Shown here: in pieces, positions 2,707 through 40,436 of the stretch
Layout: each line of letters starts with the position of its first letter
Numbering within the stretch: the first letter of the stretch is position 1
Origin: a virus
Lineage: Duplodnaviria > Heunggongvirae > Uroviricota > Caudoviricetes
IMG/VR virus record: IMGVR_UViG_3300049203_000077
Span: 64,001 to 104,734 of that record
Direction: 5' to 3' (one strand)
DNA length: 40,734 bases
Made by a program: the position numbers and the translations under genes
Notes under the pieces: generated by a model
Seen by the model: only the letters and a program-made list of their open reading frames with translations
What the model was told of the DNA's origin: nothing
Database searches by the model: none

Positions 2707-5700
2707 ATGCCACAACAAGACCCAATAAAACCGGGACAAGTAACAAATCTTCCACAGAACAATTACGATCCAAATGCTGAAGCAGGTAGAGTAGTAAATA
2801 AACTTCCATATGTTGCTCCTCCAACTGCTCTTAACTTATTGTTTAATAGTACAGCTCCTACTACTGCAGAAGGTGCTAGTAAGGTGAATCCTGCTTACGC
2901 ATTATATATTAACACATTAAAGAATGCTAATGGAAAACAGGCCTTTTTAAGTCAGCCTTATTACACACCTGAGACAATAGCAGGACGATATGGGGATAAG
3001 GAAATAGGTGGTTATCATCCATATGACATGAACCTTGAAAATTGGTATGGAGATAATCAAAGCTGGTTTAATCAATGGGGAAATCGTCTTGGCAAGCTTG
3101 GAACAAAGGCAATAGGTAGCTTTGCTAATTCCTTAATGGACATTCCAAACATTATAGCTCAATCAGCAACAGGACAAATGTCTCTGGATAAGATGTGGGA
3201 TAATCCAACAAATAGTTGGGCTACTGATCTTATGGAGTGGAGTGAAAAAGCTATGCCTAATTATGAGACAAATTGGGAAAGAGAGCATCCTTTTGCTAAT
3301 CTTATTCCTATTTATGGTGCTCTTCATGGCGGTAGTGCTGCAAACAGCTGGGGCAAAGCAATAGAGAATCTTGGTTTTACTGTGGGTGCTATTGGTGGAG
3401 CTGTAGTAGAAGACTTAATTGTAGGTGGATTAACAGGCGGGGTAGGTGAAGTACCTCTTGCTGCTATGCAAATAAATAAAGCTGTTTATAAGCTAGGTAA
3501 GCTTGTTAATGCAGGAGAGGATTTCTTAGGAGCACTTAAGTCTAACATTAGAAATGCTGATGATATTGTAAAAGGACTTAAAGGAATAGATAGATTCAAT
3601 TATGCTGTTCGTCAAGGACTTTGGGGAGCTAATATGATTACATCAGGTATCTCTGAAGCTGCTTTTGAAGGTATTGAATCTTACAAAACACTATCTAAAG
3701 ACCTTCAACAAAAATATTTTGAAGAAACAGGTAAAGCTCCTTCTTTTGAAGAAAATCAAAAGATAGACGCTCTTGCTAGAGATGCTGCTAACTCTCGTTT
3801 CTTATTAAATACTGCTTTATTAGCAGCAACAAATAGTATTCAATGGGGTAATCTGTTTCGTCCTCTAAACGCTACTAAAGAACTTCTTGAAGCAGAAGCT
3901 AAACAAGGTGTACGTATAGCATTAAAGGAAGGAAGTGTGGACGCTTTCGAAGCTGTAGAACATACTTCCAGACTAGCTAAATGGGGAAAGAACCTTACCG
4001 ATAATAAAGTATCTCAAATTCTATTTGGCTCATCTTCTGAAGGATTTGAAGAAGGCGCTCAATATATTATTGAGAAAGGTATTAACGATTTTTACAAAAG
4101 GAAGTATGAAGATAAGAATATCACTCTTACTAACAACTTTTTAAAATCGTTTGGTACAGGTTTAGCTGAAACATTAGGTACTAAGGAAGGTTGGGAGAAT
4201 ATAGTTCAGGGCCTTCTAGGTGGTGCACTTTATAAAGGTGGGGAACATGCGTATTACAAGGCAAGAGGTATAAATAACAATCCTAACTACAAAAAACAAA
4301 TAGATGCTGTAATTGATGGACTAAACTCCCAATCTCTTACAGGTATATTTGAGAATAAATACGGCACTGCTGTTGAAGCTATGTCTATTCAGCAGGACTT
4401 GCAAGATGCTGCTGCTAAGAATAATGTATTTGCATATAAGAACTATAAGCACGATCAGTTTGTAAACTTTGTTTTAAGTGGTATTCAACAAAATAAGTTT
4501 GATACCCGCCTTGAACAACTTCAAGAATTAAAGAAGCTTGAGGGTTCTGAATTTGAAAAAATGTTTGGTATTCCTTCTAATACAGAGAACAAAAAAACTG
4601 TGTCTGAATATGTAGGCAAATTGGAAGAAAATGCTAAGTATATAAAGGAAATTCACAAAAGGGTATCTCGTACATTTGTTAATCCTTATCAGCTTAAAGG
4701 AACAGGTAACTACAAGAATGCTGAAGAGAAAAAGAGACAAGACGAGGAGAATGAGAAGCACATCATTTACGAGAAGGTAAAAAATGAGCTTGTTCGCTTA
4801 ATGTCTATTTCTAAGGACTCGGCAGATCGCATTAGAGATATGCATAGTCAGATTACTTCTATGCAGACTGTTGTAGACCCTTCAACTGTTATTAAGCTTT
4901 CTTCAATAGAAGGGATACAAGATCTCAAAAAGGAATATAAAGAAAAATTAAAACTTGCTGAGGAATCACTTAAGCTTGCTCCCAATGATGCTAAAAATAA
5001 AAGGGATGTTAAGTGGTATTCTAAGAAAGTATCTGAGATAGAAGATGTTACTAATGAGAAAGATGAGAAAACTCAAAATGTTAAATACAACAAATTTCTA
5101 AATGATGTATTTGATAGAACACAAAAAGAAGATAATAAGTTCTATAAATTATATGGTACTGACTCTCAGAAGTTGTCTGTAGACACTCCTTTTCCAAGAG
5201 ATGTTATTAAGGATTTAACTGATTTGGGAAAAGATATTTATTACTTACAAAAAAGGAATGAGGTTGCCGTTGATAGATATGCTAGTTTAACTACTAAAGG
5301 AGGATTTAAAGAGCACTTTGATAAAGAGGCTACTGCAAGAAAGGAGGCTAATGATTTATTAGTTAATCTACAACAACCTCAGACACAAGGACAAGCAGCG
5401 CAACAACAAGCAGCATTTAATGCTTCTCAAGTACAACAAAATCAAGCACCTACTCCTCAGCCACAAGCAGCTACTACAAATACAACAGCACAAACTCCTT
5501 CTTCTCAACCACCTACAGCAATTCCTCAACAACAAGGATATGTTGAAGAACTTGGTATAATAAAAACAGCAGACGAGGAAAGAGCTGAACTCATCACTTA
5601 CATGATTGAGGCTATTGACGAAAAGAGAGTCTTAAGTGAAATAGAAGCTGAAATCTTAGGCTTTAAGACTATTGACGATTTAAAGTTTGATAATCCTTCA

Positions 5701-8700
5701 GTTAAAGTAGAGGATTATGAAAAAATTAGAACTCAGTCAAAAAGGCACTACTACCTTCACAAAGACACCATAAAGGCTGGTAGAGAGTTCCTAGAAGAAT
5801 ATAACAAAAGACCTTCTACAATATCTAATTTAGTATCTGAGATTGAGAAGAAAAGGAAGGACGCGTTACAAGGTATTAAATTATCGGATGTACAGGTTGG
5901 AGATAAACTACAAGTTTCTTCAAACTTGTCCGGAGGATTTAAAAATAAAGATGTTGTAGTTACTAGAAGATCAAAACTGGGAGTTCAATTTGATAACGAA
6001 AACGTATGGTATAACTTTAAAAATTCTACACTTTCTATAGTTAATTTTAAAAACTATAGTCAAGAAGAAAGAATTAACGCTAAATATGATGCAGAGTTAG
6101 CTGTACTAAGAGGGGGAGCTTCTCAAGAAAGCAATGAAAATCAAGGTGGTGCGCCTCCTATCACTCCTAATGATCCACCTCCTACTACAGGAACAGGAGG
6201 ACTTAGGACTGATGACTTCATGGCAAAAGTATTTGTTCCGGGAGATTTAAAACTCTCGTTTAACAATGCTATATTCTCAGGAACTAGGGATCAAGTTAAG
6301 ACTGGAATGAGTATTCGTGTAAGACCACTGGAGCCTCAATTCCAGCAGCAATTTGATCAACAATCTGCTACAAGATCATATACACAAATGACTGGATTTC
6401 CAGGAGTATATGTGTCTAAAGCACCTGTTGATATTTCTGTTTCACACTTTAATGGTATCGAAGTGAATGAAATAGGTAAAGTAGCCTATCCAAAGAGACT
6501 TTTGTTTAGAGTAGGTAATGACTTTGTTAACATTGACAGGCTTACTCCTGAGCAATATCAACATTTCACTGGCAGGCCAGCAGCTCAACATGCTGCTGAT
6601 GTAGAAGAATATAACAAACAAGTAGCTTTTACAAACTACTTAGCTTTAAGATTTAGAAATAACAATCTACAAGAAATTACTCTCACTCCACAAGAGATTA
6701 ATGAGCTTCTTGATATTGTTATTACTTATGGAGAGTTGGACCTTATACCAGTTGGCCAAGAAAGACCATTATATAATCAGCTAAGACGCAACACTGTATC
6801 TCTTCCTATCTCAACAGGGGGAACATTAAATACAATGGTGATACTGTCTGCTCCTAAACGTCAGATGGATGAAGATGGTGTAATGGTTCGTGAAAGAATA
6901 GGAAGTATCAATCCTATCTATGGACAAAATTTCTATGATAATTCAAGTGCAGATGATAGTGTTATTTTAGATTTTATCAGTAATTCGGCTGACAGTATTA
7001 TTAAAGTGAATTCTCGTTACATAGGACTAGTATCTAAACCAGATGGTAGTTTTTCTCTTATTGCTCTACGTCCAGCAGAAATGGACACTGCTGCTAAAAC
7101 AAGTTTACTCCAAACTCTTATAGATAGATCAACAGAGTCTCTTAGGACAAACTTTGTTCCTTCTACAAAGGAGGAGTCTCCTAAGAATGTATTATTAATA
7201 GGTAATGATGAGGTTTACTATAAACTTCCAAGTGACGCTGCTAAAGACTATAATAAAGATTTCAATGACAATATAAATAATCAAGTGTTTATTTCAGATC
7301 CTAATGGTAAAGTGTGGTTTGAAATTACACTTAGTCCAATTGGAGCTCTTCGCTTGGATATTCATGAACCTAATTCTGGATATAGAAATCGTCTTATTGT
7401 TGCTCCTCAAAAGGTTGGAAAACTTGATTCTTTCCAAGCAATGATTGATGCATTTAATAATGAATTAGTAAAGAAAGAAAAAGATGATGAAACTCTCAGA
7501 GGACTAGCAATAAGACTAAACAGTAGTAACTTTAGGCAAAACATAGCTGATGATAGTAATATTCCTAATGCTGAAGCATTGGCTTCTCAACTAACTGCTG
7601 CTACATCTACAGAGGTATTTAAGAACGGAACAATGAAACTTGTTCCTGATACTGGAAATGTAGCATCAGCTTATAAAAATGCAAGAGGTAGCACACAACA
7701 GGCTACTCCTGAACAAACAGCTCAAGAACAGCCTCCTGTTGCTCCTGAAACTCCAGCTACTCCAGCAATGCCTCAAGGGCTTACTTCTCTTACAGAGCAA
7801 CAACCTCAGGAGTATGGTACACTAGAAGATGTGTTTGGTCCCCAGATTCCTACTGGAATGTTTCAAGGTATGACAGGAGTTCCTGTAGATGAATCAGGAA
7901 ATCCTATTGCACCTATAGAGACTGCTCCTCAAAATCAAGAGGAAGCACAAGGAATTGTTTATACATCTGTTAAGGAAGCATTAAATGCTAATGACATAGA
8001 CTATAGAACAGTAGAAGGTGAAACTCAGTTCTTTAATATTAGTACAGGCCAATTACTTGATCTTCCTGGAGTAGCTCCAAAGGACTTAGCTGATTCTATG
8101 GGACTTACTATTGCACCTCAACAAAGACCTCAGAGAGGTACAGGATTTGACTTTATGCGTTCTGAGCAAAATCTATCTACATTAAACAACATGGTAGATT
8201 TTGAGAATGCTAGAGTGTACATCAATTCTATTCTTCCCTCATTTATTAGTGTGGAGGACATGGATGCTGTAATGAATAAGATTAGAGAGCAAGGAATTGA
8301 AAATCCTGAGAAAAATGTTTGGGGAGCTTTCAAGGATGGGATCATCTATCTTAATAAGCAAGCTCCATCAGCAGGACAAGAGTATCATGAAGCATTCCAT
8401 GCTGTATTTAATTCATTCATTCCTCAAGAAGAACAAAAGTCTCTTCTTAACTATGCTAATGATGAGCTTTACAAAAAGCTTAAGAAAGAAGGAAAATCTA
8501 TTAGAGAATATATTAATGAACAGCGTAAACAAGGAGTATGGACAAATATTTCTGATACCCATGCAGCTAATAAAGCAGCTGAAGAATGGATGGCAGAAAA
8601 GTTTCGCTCATGGAAAAATAAAAAAAAGAACGCAGGTATTCTTCAAAGACTATTTGATTTAATTGATAGATTTTTTAGATGGATAACTAGAAATCAAAAT

Positions 8701-11700
8701 GATCTTAATGCCCTATTCCACAAAATAGATACAGGAGGGTATAAATATTCTAATATAGCTGCTAACTCCTTCACTCAAGAGACAACTGAAGACACTAATA
8801 TTCAGGAGTTTAAATTCATGCTTGTTCCTGCTCGTCCTACGCAAATGGCAGTCGGTAGAGGAACTATTGAAGTAAAGAGAAATCTTGATGCTAAGACATC
8901 TACACAAGTGATTCAAAATGTAGCTGCTTACTTTGAGATGTACAAGAGAATGGGAGAGTACCAGCTGTCTGATGAAAAGTTATTAGACCAAATATTGGAC
9001 GACCTAAAAACTACATACAGCGCAGATAATCCTCTTTATGAAGGAATGACTCAAGAGCAATTAAATATAATAGCTAACTCTGACGAAAACTATATTTATT
9101 CAAATGACGAGACAAGAGCTATTATAAAAGAAGGTGCTAAAGAGTACATTAATTCAATGAATTATTTTGAACAATTCCAGTCTGAGGAACTTGAAGATCA
9201 AGAACAGGATACAGGTGCACCAAGAACTGGATATGATAATAGCTCTGAGAATATTGGAGGATTTAGCTCTCTTCCAGGAATGGTTCGTCATTACTTAGGG
9301 TTTACATCTTATCCTGTAACTAATAGATTTGGTCAATCTACATTAGCTAATGGTAAGCCCGTAATAGCTACAATTGATGCTGTATCAGTTTACTATGGAT
9401 TACTACGTGCTACAGCTAATATCAATGATCCTGTCAGATTCTTTCAGAGAATGATACGCTTTGCTGATAACAATGAGCAGAGTCGTCACTTTGTTAAGAA
9501 ATTCCTCGTTGATACAGGACTTAACGAAGACGCATTAAATGAAGGTAGAATTGAGGCTACCAGAAATAAAGCCTTAGTTGAGCAGGTAAGAAAAGCATTT
9601 AATAAGTATCGTATTGATTATATATTTACAGAGTATGACATGAAGAAGGGTAAATATCGCTCTTATCATGCAAATCGTAGAAATGTAGAAAATGTACAAT
9701 TCGATAAATGGTCTAATGTATTTATTGATGGATACTCTGAGATGAGTGCTGACCAGCAGGCTACTATACGCAGAACTATTGATAACATAAGAAACAGATA
9801 CTTTGATCCAAGAAGGGCTACAAAGAGAACAGCTGATGAAATCAATGTGATAGTTACTGAAGTAAGGAATGCTCTACTTTCAGTAGGTATGCAACTGTCA
9901 TTCGACTATATAAGATATTCATTATTAAGTATTAATGCTAAAAGATTTGATACTCTAAATAAAGAATATAAAGCTCAGGGAGCAGAATTACAGGTTGATG
10001 ATCCACAAAACACATTTATTTCTAAAGCTGATTATAACTATGTTCAGGTAATGAAGATTGCTGATGAAGTTACTTTGAGTAAAGAGTTTATGGATGAGCT
10101 TTCTAGGTCTTTATCAGCTAATGAGAACCCTTATTTTCGTGTATTAAGAGAAGGTGAAGATATTGATGAGGAAGAAGAAAAGTCAAAGGGTGGTATGGTG
10201 ACACGTATCTCAAATGTCGCTAAGGGTAATGCTTTATTTGATGAAACTGTAGGTGAGTCTTCTTATATGAATGCTGATGATAAATTAGTATTTGCTCACC
10301 AAGATGGTACATTTAATGTTAAGGCCTCTTATGCACTTAGAGATGCTGAAACCAGAAGAAGACTTAGAGAGACTGGTATAAGAAATGAGGCTTCTGCAGC
10401 TACAGATTCCTACGATTCTGCATGGTTAACAGATAACTACTTGTTAAACTCTGCTTCATTTGAAGCAGTAGCAGATAATCTATTGTTTCAGAATATAGAT
10501 GGTATTCGTGCTGTAGAAACAAATAAAGAAGGTAAAGTAATTACAGAGGAGTTTAGAGACCAAAAAGAAGGTGTTACCTATGGTTCTTATTCTCCTAGAG
10601 AATTCTTTATTAACCTTACAAATATGTATATCTCTTATGCTAAAGTTCAGAAGACAGCAGCAGGAGATGTTATTACTACTCCTCATCTAATTCGTGTACT
10701 TGAAGCTTCTAAAACAGCTAACACTGTAAACCTACCTATCAACTTAGATGTTTATAGAGAAGGTACAGTAACAGAGAAAACTGCAGATATTCTTTTTAAG
10801 GAGGTGCAAAAAGAGTTCAACAGAATAAAAAGAGTGCAGGGTGAAGTAGGAACTTTAACAGATAGTATAGTGGAAAATTATCATACAGGTAGTTTTGAAG
10901 ATGATGGATTTACTGTAAGAAAGGGTTATCGTGGCCTGAAGTTTACAGATAACATGACTTCCTTATTGACTAAATCTACAGCTAATCTACTTGAAAGGAA
11001 AGCTCGTACAAACCTAGAACTATCTCAAGAAGATGTTGCTACTATTAAACAAGAGATTAAAAACTCTTTAAATAAGATGGTAGATGACGCTATTGATCTG
11101 ATGGTAGCTGAAGGTATTATTAAGATAGGACCTAAAGGTTCTTATCAAAACGTACTTCTTCATCGCGAGTTCTTTGTTCAAGGTAAAGATAGTTTAGGAC
11201 TGAACTTACAAAGTGTTGATAAAGGAGTAAAATTTAAAACGAATATAGGACATGTTCTCATAAATGACTACATTAATACATTAGCGTATAATCAGATTCT
11301 TCATGGTGATCCTGCGTTATCGCTAAAGAATGACGGTGGTATTGATGCTGTAAAACGTGCCAAGGGTGACAATGCTGCAATCACTTCTATTAGAACTGAT
11401 TTGACAGCTCCAGAGCTTGGAATTACTGAAGCATTTACACATTCAAGTGTAGCTATTTTTAAGGAACCTGTTGCTCCAGATGGAACAAAGGTAGCCGATG
11501 CTCAAATGTATGCTACTGTACGTGCTCTTCGTTATACATTATGGGGACTTGGTAGACTTTCTCCACGTTTAGCTAGATTTTTAGACGCCTTAGAAAGAGG
11601 AGATGATATTCACAACTTAACAGATTCAAATGGTGAAACTTATGATGGAGTGTTTGATGATAGTAAAGGCATCTTAAGATGGGATGAAATGACTAACTCT

Positions 11701-14055
11701 TTAAAACTCGTATTTAAAGATGGTAAGACATACTACAAAATGTCTGTAGTTATTCTTCAACCAAATCTTACTGCTAGAAGGAATGAGCAAGGTGAGTGGA
11801 TAACTCGTCCGGGATGGGAAACCCTCGATAGTCTTAGAAGAAAGATGGAGAAAGACAGAATACATTTTGCTGCTCCAGAATCAGCTTCTAAAATGATGAC
11901 TTTAGATGTATCTAAAGCTGAAGACTTCTCAGACTTAAAAGGACATTTAGTTGATAATCAGTATTTTGGACTACAAACAGAAAATCCTTCTAATAAGCTT
12001 GAAATTACTACACCTACTCAGTTATTACAATTGATTGATTCTGAGCAAGATGATAGTGTAGAAGTAGTGTTCCAAGGCACAAGAACTAGTGTTGGAGAAG
12101 TTAAGAGAATTTATCAAGAGTCTGTAGCTCAGAAAGTAGTAAACTCTTATGATACAGCTCTTAATGAAATATACGATATTACAGAGTTTAATGAAGATAT
12201 GGATACTTTGATTGTTAATGGTCATGTAACTCCTCGTCTTGCTAAATTCTATCAGCGTATATCTTCTACATTAGAGTCATCAGGTAGTGATGCGCAATTA
12301 TTAGACTTCTTCTCATTAGATGAGAATGGAAATATTAGGTTTAACGCTAACCTATCAGCAATTAAAACTAAATCTCAACAGCTTTATCTGTCATACTTTT
12401 CTAAAGGAGTTCTTTCTCAGAAGAATCCTGGTTATACTGTAGCTCTGTTCTCAGGTATTGATACTAAAACTTCTAGAATAGCTAAAAGGGTTGAGAATGG
12501 AGTTGTTACAGAATGGGCTTACGTTAGAAGAGATGAATGGGACGCTAACCATAATGGGGTGAGAGATCAACAGATACTTGGTTCTAAAGATCAAGTGACT
12601 GAAGAAGGGCAATTATTCTTGGATGAACTTCAATACATGGTCCCTAAATATAATTATGAGGGAGAAGTAGAAGGGTATTATTCAGAAATGATGCTTCCTG
12701 CTCATTTTAAAGAGCTTCTTGGTCTTAGACCAGGGGATGAAATTCCTGATGCTATAGCTTATATGTTTGGTGTACGTATTCCTTCTCAAGATAAACACTC
12801 ATTCATTTCTTTAAAACTAATAGACTTCTTACCAGCTAACTTAGGGTCTACAGGTATGTTCCCTAAGGAGTTGATTAAACTATCAGGTGCTGACTTTGAC
12901 ATTGATAAACTCTTTATTACTAGATATGACTTCTATCTTACTAAAGATGCAGATGGCAATCCTAAATTTAATAAATATGGTGATGCTACGAATGATAGGG
13001 GTAGATGGATGGAGTATAAGAGATGGATGTTAGAAAACAATAAGTCTCTTAAAAACACTGTAAGAGATATTCTTTTACAAGACGCTACTTATCAGGAGCT
13101 TAAAGATGAGCAGCAGGTATTAAGAGAGCTTCAGATGGAAGAAGCATTTGACGATGCTGCTAGACAATTAAAAAAGCAACTTTATGACAGAGCTGTTTCT
13201 CAAGCTTTAGCGTATCTAAAACTTCCTTCTACACTAGAGCAGTTTACAGAAGCCTCAAGAACTAAAGAACTAAATAATGGTGTTCTGAATAATAGAATAC
13301 TAGATAGTTATCGTACTCTTTTAACAAATAGGGGAATGCATGAAATTGCTGCTACACCTGCTAGCTTAACAGCTCTACAGGACATTCAGGATGAGAATGA
13401 CATTACGTTGAGAGATGCTCAAGGAAATAAAATAGGCTCTGTTTTTCAAAAGAAAACAAATTATCCAGTAGATAGTTTAATGGGTAAATTCTATGGATTT
13501 AAGAATAACACTACAGGCAAAAACAATATTGGTATTGATGTTAATGCTAACTTAATATATTCAGTAGCTAATAAAGGAGATATATCCTTAACAGACCCTG
13601 AAGAAGGATTTGAAATGGACAGTAAGAAGTTTTCTAGCTTTTCTGGAAATAGAGAATATAATTTAGAAACTGAGCAGTTTGATGGAAAACGTACAAATGA
13701 CGTTCTTTCTACATTAATTACAGCTGCTACAGATGAGGCTAAAGAACAGTTAAATGCCTTGTATAACTTAGGAGTGGATGCTCTGAAAGTAGTAAACTAC
13801 TTGGTAGCTCTTAAAGTTCCTTTAAAGACAGCCATCTACTTTGTAAACCAGCCTTCTATTCGTAACTACTTGGATATTAAGGCTGTAAAGCAAAATACAA
13901 TTCAAACTAAAGAAGAAGAGAATCTCTATAGAGATGCCTTCAGGCAAGAAGCTGTATTAAAAACTCAAAAACAAATTAAGGATTATAAGGACATGTCTGA
14001 CAGCGAGCTATTCAGCATGTTTGAGGCTAATAGTTTAGTGGAGGTAAGATGTTAA
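2707..14055 (+). CDS. Giant virion-packaged DNA-dependent RNA polymerase of crAss-like type (3782 aa) with zincin-like metallopeptidase domain
   Basis: Catalytic GADFDIDKLF (DFDID at 12892-12906, residue 3396 onward) preceded by RIPSQDKHS; HEAFH zincin motif at 8386-8400; Gly-rich hydrophobic N-terminal segment; Q/P/T-rich linkers between domains. Confidence 0.9.
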   Translation: MPQQDPIKPGQVTNLPQNNYDPNAEAGRVVNKLPYVAPPTALNLLFNSTAPTTAEGASKVNPAYALYINTLKNANGKQAFLSQPYYTPETIAGRYGDKEIGGYHPYDMNLENWYGDNQSWFNQWGNRLGKLGTKAIGSFANSLMDIPNIIAQSATGQMSLDKMWDNPTNSWATDLMEWSEKAMPNYETNWEREHPFANLIPIYGALHGGSAANSWGKAIENLGFTVGAIGGAVVEDLIVGGLTGGVGEVPLAAMQINKAVYKLGKLVNAGEDFLGALKSNIRNADDIVKGLKGIDRFNYAVRQGLWGANMITSGISEAAFEGIESYKTLSKDLQQKYFEETGKAPSFEENQKIDALARDAANSRFLLNTALLAATNSIQWGNLFRPLNATKELLEAEAKQGVRIALKEGSVDAFEAVEHTSRLAKWGKNLTDNKVSQILFGSSSEGFEEGAQYIIEKGINDFYKRKYEDKNITLTNNFLKSFGTGLAETLGTKEGWENIVQGLLGGALYKGGEHAYYKARGINNNPNYKKQIDAVIDGLNSQSLTGIFENKYGTAVEAMSIQQDLQDAAAKNNVFAYKNYKHDQFVNFVLSGIQQNKFDTRLEQLQELKKLEGSEFEKMFGIPSNTENKKTVSEYVGKLEENAKYIKEIHKRVSRTFVNPYQLKGTGNYKNAEEKKRQDEENEKHIIYEKVKNELVRLMSISKDSADRIRDMHSQITSMQTVVDPSTVIKLSSIEGIQDLKKEYKEKLKLAEESLKLAPNDAKNKRDVKWYSKKVSEIEDVTNEKDEKTQNVKYNKFLNDVFDRTQKEDNKFYKLYGTDSQKLSVDTPFPRDVIKDLTDLGKDIYYLQKRNEVAVDRYASLTTKGGFKEHFDKEATARKEANDLLVNLQQPQTQGQAAQQQAAFNASQVQQNQAPTPQPQAATTNTTAQTPSSQPPTAIPQQQGYVEELGIIKTADEERAELITYMIEAIDEKRVLSEIEAEILGFKTIDDLKFDNPSVKVEDYEKIRTQSKRHYYLHKDTIKAGREFLEEYNKRPSTISNLVSEIEKKRKDALQGIKLSDVQVGDKLQVSSNLSGGFKNKDVVVTRRSKLGVQFDNENVWYNFKNSTLSIVNFKNYSQEERINAKYDAELAVLRGGASQESNENQGGAPPITPNDPPPTTGTGGLRTDDFMAKVFVPGDLKLSFNNAIFSGTRDQVKTGMSIRVRPLEPQFQQQFDQQSATRSYTQMTGFPGVYVSKAPVDISVSHFNGIEVNEIGKVAYPKRLLFRVGNDFVNIDRLTPEQYQHFTGRPAAQHAADVEEYNKQVAFTNYLALRFRNNNLQEITLTPQEINELLDIVITYGELDLIPVGQERPLYNQLRRNTVSLPISTGGTLNTMVILSAPKRQMDEDGVMVRERIGSINPIYGQNFYDNSSADDSVILDFISNSADSIIKVNSRYIGLVSKPDGSFSLIALRPAEMDTAAKTSLLQTLIDRSTESLRTNFVPSTKEESPKNVLLIGNDEVYYKLPSDAAKDYNKDFNDNINNQVFISDPNGKVWFEITLSPIGALRLDIHEPNSGYRNRLIVAPQKVGKLDSFQAMIDAFNNELVKKEKDDETLRGLAIRLNSSNFRQNIADDSNIPNAEALASQLTAATSTEVFKNGTMKLVPDTGNVASAYKNARGSTQQATPEQTAQEQPPVAPETPATPAMPQGLTSLTEQQPQEYGTLEDVFGPQIPTGMFQGMTGVPVDESGNPIAPIETAPQNQEEAQGIVYTSVKEALNANDIDYRTVEGETQFFNISTGQLLDLPGVAPKDLADSMGLTIAPQQRPQRGTGFDFMRSEQNLSTLNNMVDFENARVYINSILPSFISVEDMDAVMNKIREQGIENPEKNVWGAFKDGIIYLNKQAPSAGQEYHEAFHAVFNSFIPQEEQKSLLNYANDELYKKLKKEGKSIREYINEQRKQGVWTNISDTHAANKAAEEWMAEKFRSWKNKKKNAGILQRLFDLIDRFFRWITRNQNDLNALFHKIDTGGYKYSNIAANSFTQETTEDTNIQEFKFMLVPARPTQMAVGRGTIEVKRNLDAKTSTQVIQNVAAYFEMYKRMGEYQLSDEKLLDQILDDLKTTYSADNPLYEGMTQEQLNIIANSDENYIYSNDETRAIIKEGAKEYINSMNYFEQFQSEELEDQEQDTGAPRTGYDNSSENIGGFSSLPGMVRHYLGFTSYPVTNRFGQSTLANGKPVIATIDAVSVYYGLLRATANINDPVRFFQRMIRFADNNEQSRHFVKKFLVDTGLNEDALNEGRIEATRNKALVEQVRKAFNKYRIDYIFTEYDMKKGKYRSYHANRRNVENVQFDKWSNVFIDGYSEMSADQQATIRRTIDNIRNRYFDPRRATKRTADEINVIVTEVRNALLSVGMQLSFDYIRYSLLSINAKRFDTLNKEYKAQGAELQVDDPQNTFISKADYNYVQVMKIADEVTLSKEFMDELSRSLSANENPYFRVLREGEDIDEEEEKSKGGMVTRISNVAKGNALFDETVGESSYMNADDKLVFAHQDGTFNVKASYALRDAETRRRLRETGIRNEASAATDSYDSAWLTDNYLLNSASFEAVADNLLFQNIDGIRAVETNKEGKVITEEFRDQKEGVTYGSYSPREFFINLTNMYISYAKVQKTAAGDVITTPHLIRVLEASKTANTVNLPINLDVYREGTVTEKTADILFKEVQKEFNRIKRVQGEVGTLTDSIVENYHTGSFEDDGFTVRKGYRGLKFTDNMTSLLTKSTANLLERKARTNLELSQEDVATIKQEIKNSLNKMVDDAIDLMVAEGIIKIGPKGSYQNVLLHREFFVQGKDSLGLNLQSVDKGVKFKTNIGHVLINDYINTLAYNQILHGDPALSLKNDGGIDAVKRAKGDNAAITSIRTDLTAPELGITEAFTHSSVAIFKEPVAPDGTKVADAQMYATVRALRYTLWGLGRLSPRLARFLDALERGDDIHNLTDSNGETYDGVFDDSKGILRWDEMTNSLKLVFKDGKTYYKMSVVILQPNLTARRNEQGEWITRPGWETLDSLRRKMEKDRIHFAAPESASKMMTLDVSKAEDFSDLKGHLVDNQYFGLQTENPSNKLEITTPTQLLQLIDSEQDDSVEVVFQGTRTSVGEVKRIYQESVAQKVVNSYDTALNEIYDITEFNEDMDTLIVNGHVTPRLAKFYQRISSTLESSGSDAQLLDFFSLDENGNIRFNANLSAIKTKSQQLYLSYFSKGVLSQKNPGYTVALFSGIDTKTSRIAKRVENGVVTEWAYVRRDEWDANHNGVRDQQILGSKDQVTEEGQLFLDELQYMVPKYNYEGEVEGYYSEMMLPAHFKELLGLRPGDEIPDAIAYMFGVRIPSQDKHSFISLKLIDFLPANLGSTGMFPKELIKLSGADFDIDKLFITRYDFYLTKDADGNPKFNKYGDATNDRGRWMEYKRWMLENNKSLKNTVRDILLQDATYQELKDEQQVLRELQMEEAFDDAARQLKKQLYDRAVSQALAYLKLPSTLEQFTEASRTKELNNGVLNNRILDSYRTLLTNRGMHEIAATPASLTALQDIQDENDITLRDAQGNKIGSVFQKKTNYPVDSLMGKFYGFKNNTTGKNNIGIDVNANLIYSVANKGDISLTDPEEGFEMDSKKFSSFSGNREYNLETEQFDGKRTNDVLSTLITAATDEAKEQLNALYNLGVDALKVVNYLVALKVPLKTAIYFVNQPSIRNYLDIKAVKQNTIQTKEEENLYRDAFRQEAVLKTQKQIKDYKDMSDSELFSMFEANSLVEVRC

Positions 14056-14117: not shown

Positions 14118-16697
14118 ATGGCTTGTACTTATGTCGTAAAAAATAGTGCTGGAGAGGAAATCTCATTTAATAGTCAAGGGGAAGCTCTTCAATATCTCAA
14201 GGATAATAATATAGCTGAGTCTAGCGTTAAAGGAGAACCTGCACGTAACACTGCTACGTTAGCTAATGTGTTACGTCAAGTAGCTTTTGGAGAAAATAAT
14301 TATTCTCCTGAACAACTGCGTGTCTTCCAAGAACAAATGTTGGATGAGTTTATAAGAATGGAAGAACAATCTCAGTTCTTCTATAAGATGGGTAGTCCCA
14401 TTGCCCTTACAAAAGGTTTGGGAAAGAGCTTTGATCAGATGGCAGGAGTTGTTAAAAATCTTACTGATCTTGGTATTGGACTTCCTGCTGATACTGAAAT
14501 AGATGCTCCGTTTGATGTGCGATATCTTCTTTCAGGAGAAGACAGATATAGATCTGCTGATCAAAATCCTTATTATCATAAGATTACTGCGAATAACATT
14601 AAGATAATGAAGGATGTTTATTCTTTGAGTAAGACAATGTTTATGGAGCAAGCTCCTTCCTTTATGAATATATCAGATAGAGTGATATCAAATCTTAAAG
14701 GAGGTCTGGCTGATGACATTGATAAAGTGAGAGAGATTAAAGATGATTTGGCAGCCTTCTTACAAATAGCTGCTTACAAACAGTGGATAGACGTAAATGA
14801 TAAGAAAACAAGTACATTACATAACAGTCTTATTTATGATACTGAAGGAACTACTTCTACTGTTGTAGATATTGTTAAAGAAGCTATTGCACTCTCTCCT
14901 GATAATACTTTCTTAAAATTTATTCTCCCTGTAAGCACCACTGTAAAAATAGGAAAAAGAAAGGTAAGAAACATAAATAATAAGGATATTATTAATACTA
15001 TCGAAGGTAAAACTCGTGGTAAAATAGAACCAGACCTTATTGCTAACATGATGGACTCATTCTCAGAACTTTATCTAAATCCTAGAACTCAATATCATGC
15101 TAAAGCACTATTTGATTACCTTATAGTGAAAGATGGTTTGATGTATAGAAATAAGTCGTTTATTAAAATGATTCCTACATTCATGTTCAAGGAGATGTCT
15201 AATGCTACTGATCTAGCTACAGAACTTCTCTCCCTTTCTCAAAGAGCTGAATTTAGTAGGTTTCTTAGAAAGATAGACACTCTGGAAATAGTAGATTCTG
15301 AAGGAAACTATAGAAGCTATTTCTCAGATGCTGATAGACAGCAATTCAATGATCTGTTTAGAAATAATGACCTTTTAGGTATAAAAAATAAATTATATGA
15401 AAAAGTTTTTGGTCTTAACTACAATCAACTTTATAATAGGTTTGAACAGATTTATGCTACAGATGCCCGGTATCAGTTTAATTTGGAGCTAATTAGGACT
15501 AAGGTAAAACCTGCGACAGGTCCAGCAAGGACGGCTAACGGTATAGCCTTTGCGGAGGATGCTGGAGTTCGTTATTTACACGTAGGTATGTTTACTGAGA
15601 AATTTAGAGCTACAGAAGAAGGTAGTGAAGAAAGATCTAAAGTGTTTAGGGAAACAATGGAAGATCTTGCTGCGGCTGGATTTAACAGTGTAAAAGTTGG
15701 GGAAGATAAAACAAATCTTCAATTTAAGAAATTTATTCGTATAAGAAGAAGTGCAGGAACATCACCTACAGGGGAACAAAAAATTGTATATGTTACGTAT
15801 CAACTTGTAAATGTTGAAAGACAAGGAGCAAATAATAGAACACAAGCTTTCTCAGGAGCAGCTATGACTGCAGAAGGTGAGTCTATTCCTAGAGGTGTTT
15901 ATGCTGTTTATGCTCCTGTAGATATTGTAGGTACATCAAACTCTACAGGCGTAGCTAATTTAGGACCGCGTCCTACAAAAGAACAAGTGATTCAAACTCT
16001 CAATAATAAGTTAAGAGGTGGTGGACAAAATCCTCCAGCAGCACCTACTACTGAGCCTTCTGGTCCTACTGGTGGTACACCTATAAGCGGTGGAACCTAT
16101 TCAGGACAAATAACTTCTCTTAGTGAGAATCAAGTATTTGTGTTTGGTTCTAATCCACTAGGTGTAAATGGAAATCCTGATAAAGGAACTGGTGGAGCAG
16201 CTCTTTCAGCTCTTAAAAATGGATGGGTGAAACAAGGTGAGAAAATGGACAATAAGGTGTCTGATTCTGGGAAGGCTTATGGTTTAACAACCGTAACTGC
16301 TCCCGGAACTAAAAGAAGTATGACTGCTGAACAGATAACAAGCGGCATTGAGAAACTCTACAAACTTGCTTATGGTAACCCTCAGAAACAATTCCTTATA
16401 GCTTATATGGGTAAGACAGGAAATAATCTGAATGGGTATTCTAACCAAGAGCTTGCAGATATGTTCTCAGCATTTGTTATTCCACCAAATATTATTTTTG
16501 AGAAAGACTTTAATACACTAATTACTAGAAAGACTCCTACTTCTAAAACAGAATCAACAGGAATAGTACAAGGAGGTATATTTGGAGGAATGCAACAAAT
16601 GCCTTTTGATCCTAATGATCTTTCAGGATTTGATGCAGGTTTTTTTACTGATAGTAGTAGTATTGATGACACATTAGACAAACTAGATGACTGTTAA
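14118..16697 (+). CDS. Virion cargo protein (859 aa): probable split-off C-terminal part of the vRNAP plus a C-terminal macro-like (FVFGSN / A1S_2505-type) domain
   Basis: Follows an RNAP ORF that ends only about 386 aa after DFDID; G/P/T linker, then QVFVFGSN...GTGGAA...KAYGLTT...PQKQFLIAY...GYSNQELADMF (16110-16526). Confidence 0.7.
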   Translation: MACTYVVKNSAGEEISFNSQGEALQYLKDNNIAESSVKGEPARNTATLANVLRQVAFGENNYSPEQLRVFQEQMLDEFIRMEEQSQFFYKMGSPIALTKGLGKSFDQMAGVVKNLTDLGIGLPADTEIDAPFDVRYLLSGEDRYRSADQNPYYHKITANNIKIMKDVYSLSKTMFMEQAPSFMNISDRVISNLKGGLADDIDKVREIKDDLAAFLQIAAYKQWIDVNDKKTSTLHNSLIYDTEGTTSTVVDIVKEAIALSPDNTFLKFILPVSTTVKIGKRKVRNINNKDIINTIEGKTRGKIEPDLIANMMDSFSELYLNPRTQYHAKALFDYLIVKDGLMYRNKSFIKMIPTFMFKEMSNATDLATELLSLSQRAEFSRFLRKIDTLEIVDSEGNYRSYFSDADRQQFNDLFRNNDLLGIKNKLYEKVFGLNYNQLYNRFEQIYATDARYQFNLELIRTKVKPATGPARTANGIAFAEDAGVRYLHVGMFTEKFRATEEGSEERSKVFRETMEDLAAAGFNSVKVGEDKTNLQFKKFIRIRRSAGTSPTGEQKIVYVTYQLVNVERQGANNRTQAFSGAAMTAEGESIPRGVYAVYAPVDIVGTSNSTGVANLGPRPTKEQVIQTLNNKLRGGGQNPPAAPTTEPSGPTGGTPISGGTYSGQITSLSENQVFVFGSNPLGVNGNPDKGTGGAALSALKNGWVKQGEKMDNKVSDSGKAYGLTTVTAPGTKRSMTAEQITSGIEKLYKLAYGNPQKQFLIAYMGKTGNNLNGYSNQELADMFSAFVIPPNIIFEKDFNTLITRKTPTSKTESTGIVQGGIFGGMQQMPFDPNDLSGFDAGFFTDSSSIDDTLDKLDDC

Positions 16698-16699
16698 AT

Positions 16700-19600
16700 A
16701 TGAAATGTAGCGTAATAAGAAATAGTAATAATGAAATTCAACAAGTATTGGCTTCAAATGGTGAGGAGTCAATACTTTTTAATATCCTTGATAGAGTATT
16801 GAATGATAAGGAAAAGGCTCTAAGACTATGGGCTACCACTTATACTCCTGACTTCAAGAAGAAATTCAAAGGAGAACGAGATGAGAATGGCGAACCTCTT
16901 TTAAGAGAGATTTCCTCTATGGTTGAAATGGATAATCCTAATGCTAGTGACAGCATCTATTTTCAGAAAGGAGATAACTCTTCATTTGAACTATTCGGAA
17001 AGATTCAAACAATTGCTCAGAAGCTAAATAACAGATTCAATATTCCCTATAGTATTATTAATGATCCCAGCAATCCTAATAGAGGATGGTTTGGGGTTAA
17101 TGGTGTGGTTATTAATTTAGCTCATGCTAAGAAAGATACAGTGTTTCATGAATATTTACACCCATTTATTCTAGCTGTACAACAGCAGAATCCCTTTCTT
17201 TATAAAGACTTATTAGTTCAACTTAGCAGTGATTTAGAAGGAATTAAAGTAATAGGTGAAGTAACTAGAAAATATCCTGAGCTTACTAAAGAGCAACAAA
17301 TGAATGAAGCTTTAGTAGAGTATTTAGGAAAACTATCAGCTCAAAAATATAACACTCCAAAATCTCCTTTTAATCGTTTTATTAACTGGTTAAAATCTTT
17401 ATTTAAGAAGATACAAATTGATCCTAAGAACTTTAGGATTGATATGACTCTTGATGAAGTTGCTGATTTAATAGTAGATGATATTTATGTAGCCGACTTA
17501 CGAGCTATTCTTCAAGATGCTAAGATACAAACGGTATATCAAAAGCCTGACACAGACTTAACATATGAGTCTGTTTATCAAAGAATTAAAGATAAAGTAT
17601 CTATCCTAAACAGAACAATTAAGAATAGAAAGAAAGGTGACCAATTTAAGGAAGATATTAGTGTGCTTAATGAAATCATCCAAAATCAGGATGAGATAAC
17701 GTCTATAAATAACTTTATATCAAACTCAATATACTATATTGACGCAGCTAAGAAAAGATTTGAGACTTTAAGAGATTCTGTAAGAAAAGCTGATCAGCTA
17801 ACAAAGGATCAACTTTCTTATAATTTGAATATTCTTGGTGAAATTCAGCAGCTTTTGAACGTATACAACTCATTAGATAGTGTCAAATCTCTTTTGTTTA
17901 GGGAGGGTATTGGATACGACAATCCAAGATTTCAAGAACTTGCTACAGCTATAGATCAAAAAAATCAGATTATTGAGGATTTTAAATCATTCAGCCTCAC
18001 CTATCTAACAGAATGGTTATTTCCATATCTTGAGCCTACAAATAGAAACTTAGAAGCTCAAGGCAAACAAAACATGATGATTACTAAAGATCAATTCAGA
18101 GAGCAATTAGTAATGGCTTTAAGAGATATTTCTGCTGCTGGATATTGGTTAGGTACAACTATCAATAGTCGTGATCCTGTATCTGCTGCCGTAGGATTGG
18201 CTCTTAAAGATGTGGTGTATGATAATCATCTAAAAGACCTTGATACAAAGAAAGAGCTTACAAATGAATATGAAAGGGCAAGAGGTTCAGCTCTTTACAA
18301 AAGCTCCAAAGACGAAGAGACTTTTAACAAAGAGTTCTTAAGAGAAGTTGAAGTATGGGAGAAAGTGGGAGTTGATCCTGAAACAGGTGAAGATAAATAT
18401 GATTACAGAAGACGTTTAGCCTTTTATCAAGAGTACCAACTGGATCAATTTGACAAGGCCAAGAAAGAATTTTATAGACAACTTGGGCCTAAACCTACTA
18501 ACGATGCAAAAGCTTTAAGAGCTTGGAACAAAGCCCAAAGTGAATGGTATGCTCAGAATACACAAATTCACCCTGATTATCAAAGAATTATAAGTGAGAA
18601 AAGAAGAACTCTTACTAAGAGACAATTTGAAGAGTGGTGGTTAACAAATACTAAAGAGATAGATGAATTGGATTATGGATATGGTAGAAAACTCTCTCAT
18701 TATTATGGAAGAAGAGTATTACAGAACTCTTTTAACCCAACAAAAGGAACATTTCGTGCTCTTTCCGGTGAGCTTATTAGGCCTGCGGAAAAATACAAGG
18801 ATAGGAAGTTTTCTACTCTTATGAATAATGCTTATTATAGGAAACTCTATAATTCTTATAAAGAAGCTAATGACAAACTTGGAAGTTTTGGACTTAAATA
18901 TGGTATTATTCCACAGCTATCTAAAGGACAAAATGCTTTTTCTGATTTAGAATGGAAAGATGGAGTTAAGAAAAATCTAGGGAAAGCCTGGAAAGGAGTG
19001 AAGGATTCTATTACGGCTAACTTTGATGAGGAAAAAACTGTTCAAAGACAAGATGGTGCTGAGGTTAAGAAAGTGCCGGTTTACTACACAACAATGTTAA
19101 ATCCAAGTGATCTTAAACTAGATTTACTTGAAGGTGTTCTAAAGTATAGTCAGATGGCAAATAACTACTCTACTATGACTGAAATTGAGCCTAATATTAT
19201 TGTTCTTAAAACTGTACTTAATGGAGACTTTAATCTAGGTATTAAAGGTAGAGATGTAGCTAAAACAAACTCTAAGGGTATTCAAGTATTCAATGCTATT
19301 ACTAAGAAAGTGGTTCCTAAGATGGCGCGTGAAGACATGCTGAATAATCGTTTAAACGAGTTTATTAATGACATTGTTTACGGAGATGCAGAGTTTGAAC
19401 AAGCTATTAATATGGGTGGAAGAGAAGTATCTTTAAACAAGCTATCTAATAAGGTGGCACTACTTACAGCATTACAAAACATGGCGGTTAACGTAAATGG
19501 AGGTATAAGTAACGTTATTGTAGGTAACTTTAACAATACTATTGAAGCTATGGGTAGACGCTTCTATTCAGCAAAAGACTATGCTTGGGCTCAAGGAGTA

Positions 19601-34850: not shown

Positions 34851-35161
34851 TATGCAAGATGTTTACCTTCTACTCCCCGCTGAACTCTGTTTTTTGTTCT
34901 CTCGTTTAACCAAATAAGGGCTTGTTGAAGATTACTAATAGCATACTCGTTTTCCTTACAAGGAAACTTCCCTTGTAAATATTCCATTCTGTTAATGAGA
35001 ACTTCTAGCACATCTTCGTTAGTTGTACCGTCTGCTACTGTTACTAAGTATTGATCAGAACCAACTAATTCTTTTTGAATGAATTGTAATGTTTGACCTT
35101 CTTTTTCTTTATTCTCGAAATTATCGAGTTCGTATTTGTGTCCTTCTACTTTTATTTTCAT
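34850..35161 (-). CDS. tad1: Tad1-like (Thoeris anti-defence 1) signal-sponge protein (103 aa)
   Basis: GTTNEDVLEVLINRM...FPCKENEYAISNLQQALIWLNERTKNRVQRGVEG matches the Tad1 C-terminal pattern as I recall it. Confidence 0.75.
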   Translation of the reverse strand: MKIKVEGHKYELDNFENKEKEGQTLQFIQKELVGSDQYLVTVADGTTNEDVLEVLINRMEYLQGKFPCKENEYAISNLQQALIWLNERTKNRVQRGVEGKHLA

Positions 35162-39299: not shown

Positions 39300-40436
39300 T
39301 TAATTCTCCAATGCTACATCTGTATGAGTAGCCCTTAAAAATTTACGAATGTCTGTATTAAGTTCTTTTAAATATTGTTTTTCGATAACATCTTCTGGAA
39401 GACTACTGCGAAGGAATGCCTCATCAATGGCTGTTATTTTTTCCTGAGCATGTTTTAGAATATCCTCAAGATTGTGTTTTCCGTGACGTATCTCTTTCAA
39501 ATACTCAGCGTTCTGGCGTCTTACAATGAGTTCACCATATTCTGCAATATCAAGAGCAGTCTCAATTAGACGTATGCAATGAAGCATGTTTTTACCATCT
39601 ATTTGTTGACCATGATTCTCAATATCTACATACCTCTGAGTATTACGGTTTTTCAACCATGTTTGGTATTCGTTATAAGCCTTACAATGCTGGGTATATC
39701 CGTCTTTGTTAAAGTACATTATACCAATACCATACGCGTCTTCAGGAATAGAGGATAGAGAAATATCGTTAGATGTGCTCTCATCTTGTACTATTCCTCG
39801 AAACATATATTTAGCATCATGAAACAGGTTGTACAAATCCCGAGTATGAGGAATTGCGGCTACTCCCATTAGTTTAATCTGACTGAGAGCAAAGGTTTTC
39901 TTCATGGGGTAGGTTTTGTACTTTTCATCTGTACTTGGTTCCATTGAATTACTTATAAAGTAACAGAAGTCCAAAACAGATTTACGTTCAATCTTTTCTT
40001 TCTCCCAGTTCATTTTCTTATTTAGCCCTTTGGCCTTCTCAATCTGAGAGATAGCATATCCTCCAAAAGAGAGTCTACACTTTTTAGTTAAGAAGCTATT
40101 TCTCTGACGTATTATCATATCAAACACCTTGTGTTTGTATATAATCATGTCTTCAGGACTAAATAATAGTTCAAGAATGGTAGGGTTAGCCTTCTCAGCT
40201 AATTCCAGAAACCTTGACAACTCATAGGCTGTTTCATCTTTAGAAATGTTAATTTGTGGGCGTGGACCATTAATAAAATAGTCATCCGCGCTTTGAACAT
40301 ATATCCATTTCTTATCAATATCAGATCCTTCAACGTTTGTACCGTAGGCATGAGAGCCTACGATACACCCGAAGATAATTGTATTTCCGTTGCCTAATTT
40401 AGGAAGATCAGGCGATGAATTCCTTGCTATTACCAT
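39300..40436 (-). CDS. Pol-beta-superfamily nucleotidyltransferase of RlaP/Nuc-transf type (378 aa)
   Basis: GSHAYGTNVEGSDIDKK (GS..DxD motif); NPTILELLF; DGKNMLHCIRL; SD-like AAGGAGG upstream. Confidence 0.8.
   Translation of the reverse strand: MVIARNSSPDLPKLGNGNTIIFGCIVGSHAYGTNVEGSDIDKKWIYVQSADDYFINGPRPQINISKDETAYELSRFLELAEKANPTILELLFSPEDMIIYKHKVFDMIIRQRNSFLTKKCRLSFGGYAISQIEKAKGLNKKMNWEKEKIERKSVLDFCYFISNSMEPSTDEKYKTYPMKKTFALSQIKLMGVAAIPHTRDLYNLFHDAKYMFRGIVQDESTSNDISLSSIPEDAYGIGIMYFNKDGYTQHCKAYNEYQTWLKNRNTQRYVDIENHGQQIDGKNMLHCIRLIETALDIAEYGELIVRRQNAEYLKEIRHGKHNLEDILKHAQEKITAIDEAFLRSSLPEDVIEKQYLKELNTDIRKFLRATHTDVALEN

Follow-up and report, generated by a model that had tools for sequence, protein, structure and literature searches.

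The window analysed here is the whole stretch of 40,734 nucleotides taken from a tailed virus of the Caudoviricetes (IMG/VR record IMGVR_UViG_3300049203_000077, positions 64,001 to 104,734). Two neighbouring plus-strand ORFs in it encode a split crAss-type virion RNA polymerase. The upstream ORF (3782 aa, 2707..14055) supplies the N-terminal and catalytic part, as indicated by motif positions and by a tblastn match to the crAssphage RNAP catalytic subunit KP06_gp44 (7e-16). Its DFDID motif lies at aa 3396 (nt 12892-12906), with only 382 aa beyond it; a zincin motif, HEAFH, lies at aa 1894, and the only Cys is the last residue. The downstream ORF (859 aa, 14118-16697) begins with a C-terminal polymerase module (aa 1-630, 14118..16007). 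Foldseek with the AlphaFold2 (AF2) model of this module (pLDDT 80.9) returned the phi14:2 polymerase gp66 (PDB 6VR4; 6vr4_A, E 1.9e-3, prob 1.0) as best match, and in VIA residues 42-626 of the ORF superpose on gp66 residues 1701-2113 (Z 14.6 over 381 residues, runner-up Z 4.0). The DFDxD motif and the gp66-like fold that mark crAss-type virion RNA polymerases are thus distributed across the two ORFs, and the 859-aa gene is the C-terminal piece of such a split enzyme. The module has 39 orthologues with 41-80% identity. Searches of the GenBank phage collection with the window (megablast, blastn) and with the module (tblastn) returned no match.

Both phi14:2 and the window phage are crAss-like and of the marine Bacteroidota type. 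gp66 is a single chain of 2180 aa, whereas in the window the break between the two ORFs falls at about residue 1700, the upstream part carries about 2000 additional N-terminal residues and the C-terminal part contains a cassette. phi14:2 gp66 enters the cell together with the DNA and transcribes the early genes (Drobysheva, bioRxiv), and polymerase-associated proteins have been found in crAss001 virions. The first-pass annotation, made from the DNA letters and their translations, had called the 859-aa product an injected virion protein, a view that homology supports, the carrier being the C-terminal part of a polymerase whose phi14:2 counterpart enters with the DNA. By the same homology, the cassette is an effector domain fused to a virion-delivered protein, as in polyvalent proteins and other virion cargo.

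The polymerase module is followed by a low-complexity linker rich in G, P and T (aa 631-659, 16008..16094, KLRGGGQNPPAAPTTEPSGPTGGTPISGG; pLDDT <50 from aa 635), a domain of the A1S_2505 family (aa 660-804, 16095..16529) and a C-terminal tail of 55 aa (nt 16530-16694, ending with the stop codon at 16697; 16530..16697) that reads GGIFGGMQQMPFDPND..GFFTD..LDDC, all on the plus strand. The observation of a domain behind a G/P/T linker in an 859-aa protein is real: the ORF, the linker and the family match were all verified, and translation of 16110-16526 yields QVFVFGSNPLG, GTGGAAL, KAYGLTT, PQKQFLIAYMG and GYSNQELADMF, all as quoted earlier. The domain does lie in this interval, but the HMM envelope is wider (aa 660-804, nt 16095-16529), and the earlier start, 15 nt late, clips the first β-strand (TYSGQI). 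The protein had also been said to end in the domain, as an appendage. Instead, another 55 aa follow, and the domain is inserted before a tail common to all orthologues (40/40), whatever fills the slot ahead of it; a Cys at the C-terminus or at most 5 residues from it is conserved in this tail.

The cassette slot is therefore the interval between the linker and the 55-aa tail. A survey of its content in related phages, as the first-pass annotation had suggested, found that in 40 orthologues it holds a macro-like domain (6), a cpYpsA domain of the SLOG class (7), NADAR (2), NADAR together with cpYpsA (1), DUF7831 (1) or an unknown insert (about 7), the remainder being empty; the NADAR-bearing slots are those of P0203, P0210 and P0188. 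Atlas searches with two of the unknown inserts gave nothing for that of P0180 and a SLOG-like lead only for that of P0201. Placing the cassette labels on the orthologue tree requires 13 changes, and different cassettes occur on near-identical polymerases; cassettes are swapped between nearly identical polymerases. Identity of the window domain is 92% to that of P0123 and 83% to that of P0124, with 79-80% for the polymerase module, values that we list as evidence of selection. In P0125, a near-identical assembly, a frameshift within the domain counts against a functional reading.

Membership in the A1S_2505 family, proposed in the first-pass annotation, is borne out by NCBIfam NF049995 (A1S_2505_Nterm; 48.8 bits for the whole protein and 52.4 bits for the domain, E 5e-14), above the curated cut-off of 45 bits, and PHROG 2072 matches the domain as well (E 1.8e-15). 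NF049995 is the only significant match listed for the domain, and in hmmscan neither the whole protein nor the domain hit any Pfam family at E<=1, PF01661 included. The domain profile matches 4827 clusters at 50% identity (E<=1e-3); 119 stand-alone homologues were collected, and stand-alone proteins of 140-160 aa make up most of the family, which NCBI names only 'phage non-structural protein'. The signature motifs FVFGSN, GxGAA, NLNGY and P-x-N-I-x-F and the invariant Thr are all present in the window domain. Family positions G13, N15, G29, A31, T61, F119 and N127 do not vary among 69 sequences, nor among 310 domain copies. The window domain belongs to subtype 2, recognised by N20, a 6-aa insertion and V62. 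In it, the loop-1 insertion reads GNPDKGTGG (aa 685-693, 16170-16196), and T725-V726 (16290-16295) stands where subtype 1 has T-K. Invariant over both subtypes are N679 (16152-16154), T725, N772 and Y774 of the loop-2 motif NLNGY (aa 770-774, 16425-16439), and N791 (16488-16490).

The AF2 model of the domain (pLDDT 95.5) has a three-layer α/β fold superposable on solved macrodomains. The best VIA match is TARG1 with ADP-ribose (Z 11.5, rmsd 2.6 A, 120 aa), and DarG (Z 10.5 and 10.3) and alphavirus macrodomains (about 10) also score highly. At least Z 8 is reached by 118 solved chains, and the top 50 are without exception macrodomains or designs on a macrodomain scaffold, covering 120/139 residues at 2.6-3.0 A. 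Foldseek matches in the PDB are also macrodomains, but weak (E about 1e-2), and matching AFDB clusters include entries annotated Macro and TIGR02452. The macro-like fold that the first-pass annotation had anticipated thus emerges from structure search, with TARG1 and DarG in front among solved structures. The two loops expected of a macrodomain, a phosphate-binding GxG loop and a second glycine loop, are found as G691-G693-A-A after the strand VFVFGSN and NLNGY after the strand FLIAY. A reading of FVFGSN..GxGAA as a SLOG/LOG-type Rossmannoid was rejected, as macrodomains are every top structural match. By its predicted structure, the domain is a macrodomain, closest to TARG1 (C6orf130; PDB 2L8R/4J5S) and DarG (5M3I/5M3E), with which it shares size, strand order and two glycine-rich loops. 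It differs from both in sequence, with 13-14% identity and no significant profile match, and from DarG in having no DarT partner.

The family profile was not significantly matched by hhalign to E. coli YmdB, to a 33-sequence YmdB-type Macro profile, to AdfM alone or to a 27-sequence DarG/AdfM profile. At probabilities of 0.8-3.3%, the local alignments were used as collinear hints only; in them, the loops of the domain fall on NAAN..GGGV and GVYGY of YmdB and on VN..GAGLA and GCANGG of AdfM. A profile search of PDB sequences gave chance matches only (kinesin, E 0.018), and a search for YmdB-related loci in viral contigs found none. No sequence method ties the family to macrodomains with significance, and the macro assignment therefore rests on predicted structure.

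Homologues of the domain recur on giant proteins, including those of cr112_1, cr50_1 and cr116_1. DFDxD is present in 30/47 giant proteins bearing the domain, which in about 21 of those 30 lies 850-1200 aa past the motif (about +1047 in the window); in many unsplit giant polymerases, it lies about 1000 aa downstream. Across the family, fusion partners are NADAR (a frequent one), ART-PolyVal, cpYpsA/YAcAr/YpsA (SLOG), DUF4326 and microbial PARG. The first-pass annotation had mentioned fusions to ADP-ribosylglycohydrolases in Bacteroidota; a glycohydrolase partner does exist, but of the microbial PARG type (PF10021/TIGR02452, in one Alistipes and one Fibrobacter genome), and a search for ARH-type fusions found none. 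In Bacteroidales chromosomes, the domain is also fused to ECF sigma-like proteins. Elsewhere in the 104.7-kb record (77% complete), ART-PolyVal, NADAR, cpYpsA and canonical Macro (PF01661) were not detected, the controls being silent too for two of these families. The minus-strand ORF once labelled 'Tad1-like' (34853-35161) has no Pfam match. Among the other products of the phage is an RlaP RNA-repair nucleotidyltransferase.

It is highly improbable that the likeness to macrodomains reflects a mere shared α/β architecture, with a substrate unrelated to ADP-ribose or a SLOG/LOG-like Rossmannoid fold. The insignificant profile comparisons and the modest Foldseek E-value would fit such a reading, but the uniform composition and coverage of the top 50 VIA matches argue against it, as does a fusion network made up almost wholly of NAD/ADP-ribose enzymes. 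So does the RIGCG loop 2 in a Bacteroidales subfamily of the domain, which we take to be TARG1-like.

The catalytic positions of the known enzymes are only partly retained. In the best hhalign alignment, which is statistically weak, the position of the catalytic lysine of DarG and TARG1 (K80 and K84, respectively) corresponds to V726, and the His preceding the GxG loop is replaced by Asn. Among the family copies sampled, the V726-equivalent position is K in 176/310 (57%) and V in 125/310. The [PI]-T-K lysine typical of DarG/TARG1-type glycohydrolases is thus missing from the window domain; AdfM and the DarG profile both show PTK. The DarG model NF048014 matches AdfM (137.8 bits, 4.9e-40) and not the window domain. 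The invariant N679 aligns in two hhalign runs (weak, collinear) with N23 of AdfM, the Asn of the strand-loop motif, and the substitution N23A lowers AdfM activity (PMC13309987).

With Lys replaced by Val and His by Asn, DarG-type chemistry is not conserved in the window subtype, and the domain might bind without catalysing anything. As a non-catalytic reader or polymerase accessory, it would bind ADP-ribose, NAD-capped RNA, nucleic acid or a host factor and regulate or localise the polymerase, with no eraser activity. Its tethering to transcription proteins twice independently, in virion polymerases and in Bacteroidales ECF sigma-like proteins, is in keeping with such a role, which we nevertheless consider quite improbable, given that the five residues invariant in both subtypes are typical of an active site and that the family consists mostly of small stand-alone proteins. 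Moreover, the slot is frequently empty or occupied by unrelated enzymes, so the domain is not integral to the polymerase.

We favour the reading in which the domain is an enzyme and probably a counter-defence tool that is made in advance in the particle and enters the cell with the DNA. Since it is part of a packaged polymerase, it most likely travels inside the capsid and passes into the cell along with the DNA. The FGSN/GxGAA and NLNGY loops are predicted to form a cleft, in which the domain would bind an ADP-ribose moiety; it would hydrolyse an adduct or derivative of ADP-ribose made by a host NAD+-dependent defence, so that ADP-ribose would be cleared before expression of any phage gene. 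The preferred target may be ADP-ribosylated ssDNA or RNA near the transcribing polymerase, as made by DarT- or CmdT-type toxins. For this reading as a whole, a cassette macrodomain on a packaged polymerase that is injected and that binds and hydrolyses the ADP-ribose adduct of a host NAD+-dependent defence, we estimate a probability of about 0.6.

Degradation or sequestration of a soluble ADP-ribose-derived molecule, such as a gcADPR or His-ADPR signal of Thoeris type, O-acetyl-ADP-ribose or ADP-ribose-1''-phosphate, in place of macromolecule adducts, seems unlikely. Iyer et al. 2022 (PMC9503650) argue from context that phage ADP-ribose-targeting domains are likelier to act on soluble derivatives. 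The use of the same slot by cpYpsA-SLOG, of a nucleotide-binding or nucleotide-processing class, favours this alternative, and so does the phage's RlaP, ADP-ribose-1''-phosphate being a by-product of RNA repair. On the other hand, the nearest solved structures, TARG1 and DarG, act on macromolecules, and the slot alternates with NADAR, characterised phage examples of which take ADP-ribose off DNA (PMC11825919). A few polymerase-bound copies per virion would also make a poor trap for a diffusible signal, although they could still break it down enzymatically.

A more specific version of the favoured eraser function would make the A1S_2505 macrodomain a transcription-coupled enzyme, clearing the single-stranded template, nascent RNA or the polymerase itself of ADP-ribose while transcription is under way. 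We regard this as unlikely. One hint is that the domain has twice, independently, been joined to transcription proteins (at the C-terminus of crAss-type virion polymerases and in the Bacteroidales ECF sigma-like proteins). Another is that subtype 2 may have relocated its catalytic lysine from the T-K site to the GNPxKGTGG insertion.

Phage factors against ADP-ribosylation are already published, as are predictions of virion-packaged phage macrodomains. The macrodomain AdfM (PhiKZ gp104), which is DarG2-like, overcomes DarTG2 as an anti-DarT2 factor (PMC13309987), and the NADAR protein AdfN (T4 gp30.3) overcomes DarTG1 (PMC11825919). AdfM, like the window domain, is a small phage macrodomain of the TARG1/DarG structural class and a plausible counter to ADP-ribosylation. 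It belongs to another family (NF048014, not NF049995) and retains the PTK lysine, where the window domain has Val and a 6-aa loop insertion. AdfM is a stand-alone protein, made during infection and taken up into the phage nucleus, whereas the window domain is fused to a virion polymerase. AdfN is an ADP-ribose eraser for phage counter-defence, and a NADAR domain sits in exactly this cassette slot of orthologous polymerases; its fold is unrelated to that of the window domain, and AdfN is a free early protein that belongs to no virion polymerase. Packaging of Macro and NADAR domains in virions has been predicted; polyvalent proteins and virion-packaged NAD/ADP-ribose domains are treated by Iyer et al. 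2017 (PMC5512222) and Iyer et al. 2022 (PMC9503650). The systems treated there likewise carry effector domains on virion-delivered proteins, predicted to act at entry, and share the partner repertoire (ART-PolyVal, NADAR, SLOG, zincin peptidase). crAss-type polymerases are absent from both papers, Macro domains are not discussed in PMC5512222, and in the sections considered here neither paper describes A1S_2505 as a macrodomain or a slot with a conserved tail.

If the favoured reading is correct, a large, so far uncharacterised family (about 4800 clusters at 50% identity) would gain a fold and a likely chemistry. Near-identical phages that differ only in their cassette (macro-like, NADAR, SLOG or none) constitute a natural experiment, which makes pre-loaded counter-defence directly testable. 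The crAss-like phages, among which are the most abundant human gut viruses, would on this reading deliver ADP-ribose-processing enzymes on an injected polymerase before any phage gene is read, and NAD+-based immunity would be countered ahead of phage gene expression.

The window makes up the final 40.7 kb of an IMG/VR virus record of 104.7 kb. Its ORF at 14118-16697 (+) encodes an 859-aa protein, and translation of 16110-16526 recovers every motif quoted in the first-pass annotation for its C-terminal domain. The A1S_2505 segment scores 48.8 and 52.4 bits against NCBIfam NF049995 ('A1S_2505 family phage non-structural protein'; curated cut-off 45) and also hits PHROG 2072 at 1.8e-15; a Pfam search of the protein and domain returned no family. 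A profile of 69 homologues places the domain envelope at aa 660-804 (nt 16095-16529), so the start first proposed, 16110, is too late and clips the first strand (TYSGQI). Nor does the protein end in the domain, as had been supposed: 55 residues still follow.

The predicted fold agrees with the macro-like fold first suggested. An AlphaFold2 model of the domain built from 69 stand-alone homologues (pLDDT 95.5, pTM 0.89) was used in an exhaustive search of 48,161 representative chains, where macrodomains fill nearly all of the best 26 rows (Z 10.5 for M. tuberculosis DarG, 10.3 for alphavirus nsP3 and 10.2 for TARG1). When the 1000 best Foldseek chains are re-aligned, TARG1 with ADP-ribose reaches Z 11.5 (rmsd 2.6 Å, 120/139 residues) and DarG 10.5 and 10.3, with Z≥8 in 118 chains. 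Foldseek E-values are weak (∼1e-2); the PDB matches are nonetheless mostly macrodomains, and AFDB cluster matches include the annotations 'Macro domain-containing' and 'TIGR02452'. Because profile-profile comparisons with YmdB-type and DarG/AdfM-type profiles (AdfM is a phage DarG-like macrodomain) fall below significance, we infer a macrodomain at the level of predicted structure, an assignment that is consistent but not proven by sequence statistics. The non-significant local alignments run collinear with the fold, pairing GQITSL with GDITKL, FGSN..G.[HN]G.GAA with NAAN..GGGV (YmdB) and VN..GVMGAGLA (AdfM), the invariant Thr of the family with that of the P-T-K motif in DarG/AdfM, and NLNGY with GVYGY (YmdB) and GCANGG (AdfM). 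No description of the A1S_2505 family as a macrodomain was found in the literature searched.

Across the 310 domain copies gathered, N15, G29, A31, T61, N127 and an L-N-G-Y motif (N679, G693, A695, T725, N791 and 771-774 in full-protein numbering) are invariant or nearly so. N679 corresponds, in weak profile alignments, to AdfM N23, mutation of which reduces DNA de-ADP-ribosylation (PMC13309987). The family comprises two subtypes with correlated features: subtype 1 (157 copies) has His before the GxG loop, no insertion and T-K, while subtype 2 (91 copies), which includes the window's domain, has Asn, a six-residue insertion (consensus GNPxKGTGG) and T-V. In the weak profile alignments the catalytic lysine of DarG/TARG1 falls on the Lys of T-K; since subtype 2 has T-V, the window's domain lacks that lysine. 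This absence makes possible one main rival to an enzymatic role, that of a non-catalytic reader. Lys or Arg is found within 90 of 107 inserted loops, which suggests that the catalytic lysine may have been relocated into the insertion.

The upstream 3782-aa ORF (2707-14055, +) matches the crAssphage RNAP catalytic subunit (7e-16) and contains DFDID at residue 3396, with just 382 residues beyond. When residues 1-645 of the 859-aa protein are modelled (pLDDT 80.9), the one real match is gp66, the virion RNA polymerase of Cellulophaga phage phi14:2 (6VR4), both by Foldseek (E 1.9e-3, probability 1.0; next match 0.10) and by structural alignment (Z 14.6 over 381 residues, model 42-626 to gp66 1701-2113; next match Z 4.0). 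Both the DFDID motif (1361) and the trigger loop (1598-1636) of gp66 precede the matched module, so the polymerase gene in the window is split directly after its catalytic core. gp66 is delivered into the host together with the DNA; it transcribes early genes and favours single-stranded DNA. The three polymerase-associated proteins are present in crAss001 virions. By homology, the 859-aa protein is probably packaged in the virion. Earlier work predicted polyvalent proteins and the packaging of Macro and NADAR domains in virions (PMC5512222, PMC9503650); A1S_2505 on crAss-type virion polymerases was not found in the literature searched.

Several neighbouring genes were also annotated. Zincin-type HExxH motifs occur in the 3782-aa ORF (YHEAFHAVF, 8386-8400, aa 1894) and in a 1318-aa ORF (VFHEYLHPF, ∼17130-17160), and may mark processing peptidases as in polyvalent proteins. 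For the 831-aa protein preceding the polymerase gene (209-2704, +), the only family hit is the Enolase C-terminal TIM barrel; this match is weak and isolated, with E 2.4e-5 over aa 527-611. A 378-aa protein (39303-40436, -), encoded near RecA, ThyX, dUTPase and class II ribonucleotide reductase genes, matches RlaP (2.4e-20), an RNA-repair-pathway DNA polymerase beta family nucleotidyltransferase.

We identified 39 homologues of the polymerase module (41-100% identity, many on 80-127 kb contigs), all sharing a tail of ∼45-55 aa, GG[IM]FGG.QQ.P[FY]DPND..DFF[TS]D....C, which in the window is the 55-aa GGIFGGMQQMPFDPND..GFFTD..LDDC (16530-16694). All 40 orthologues keep the tail and a Cys that lies at the C-terminus or no more than five residues from it, regardless of what occupies the preceding segment. 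Cys3 of the module (14124-14126) is invariant, and the only Cys of the 3782-aa ORF is its last residue (14050-14052); together these features suggest a disulfide link or else a signal for packaging, docking or processing.

The segment between module and tail is variable. It holds an A1S_2505 domain in six orthologues (P0001, P0123, P0124, P0125, P0129 and P0205), cpYpsA-SLOG in seven, NADAR in two, NADAR plus cpYpsA in one, DUF7831 in one and unknown inserts in ∼7 (one with a SLOG-like lead), and is empty in 16 (∼680-720 aa in total, two N-terminally truncated). On the maximum-likelihood tree of the module, cassette labels change 13 times against a possible minimum of 6, the macro label at least three times, and macro-like P0129 groups among P0181 and P0182 (cpYpsA) with branches of 0.008-0.08. 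In the closest relatives, identity is 92% and 83% in the A1S_2505 domain versus 79-80% in the module. No such slot with a conserved tail was found in the literature searched. The near-identical P0125 (798 aa, 8.9-kb contig), which comes from a different assembly, has a frameshift within the domain right after NLNGYSN (window ∼16437-16529) that removes the last strand and the tail; this reflects either faulty assembly or natural loss of the cassette. The motif HIGSWQTTF, read by eye from C-termini, marks a further unknown cassette in P0180, P0186 and P0187; the modules of P0180 and cpYpsA-bearing P0179 are almost identical.

Elsewhere, the A1S_2505 profile matches 4827 clusters (E≤1e-3). DFDxD is present in 30 of 47 domain-bearing giant proteins (≥1500 aa) gathered in the analysis, and in ∼21 of these 30 the domain lies 850-1200 residues beyond it, the placement seen in the window. 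In human-gut crassviruses it occurs at the N-terminus of a 'putative RNA polymerase' (Kehishuvirus cr112_1), near the C-terminus of a 4774-aa protein (cr50_1) and inside an 'ART-PolyVal-like' protein (cr116_1). Other fusion partners are NADAR, ART-PolyVal, cpYpsA, YAcAr, YpsA, DUF4326, DUF488, ExoI and SF1 helicases. The bacterial fusion to an ADP-ribosylglycohydrolase noted in the first-pass annotation is partly confirmed, with microbial-type PARG/TIGR02452 as the partner (one Alistipes and one Fibrobacter genome). Bacteroidales chromosomes encode 21 proteins of 350-430 aa with an ECF sigma-like N-terminal region, a C-terminal A1S_2505 domain and TRIGCGIAGF as second loop (L015:2179-3354, L016:2146-3366, L078:2089-3342 and 18 further loci in alignment A3). 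TIGR02937 is detected in 14 of the 21, at best 1.9e-10, under its cut-off. This fusion gives a second, independent tether to the transcription machinery, of which no description was found in the literature searched.

Nearly all slot alternatives and fusion partners are NAD/ADP-ribose enzymes. The known DarT-toxin antidotes are of two kinds, NADAR and DarG-like macrodomains, and phages employ both, with experimental precedents in AdfN (NADAR, PMC11825919) and AdfM (PMC13309987). Given these partners and precedents, the cassette is most economically read as a factor that arrives with the polymerase and erases, or at the minimum binds, ADP-ribose. Searches elsewhere in the 104.7-kb record found no ART, NADAR, SLOG or canonical Macro domain, with positive controls silent for two of the families. 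The other main rival, action on soluble ADP-ribose signals, is favoured for phage macrodomains generally by Iyer et al. 2022 (PMC9503650). For an eraser or binder brought in by the polymerase, the candidate target favoured here would be an ADP-ribosylated nucleic acid where early transcription occurs.
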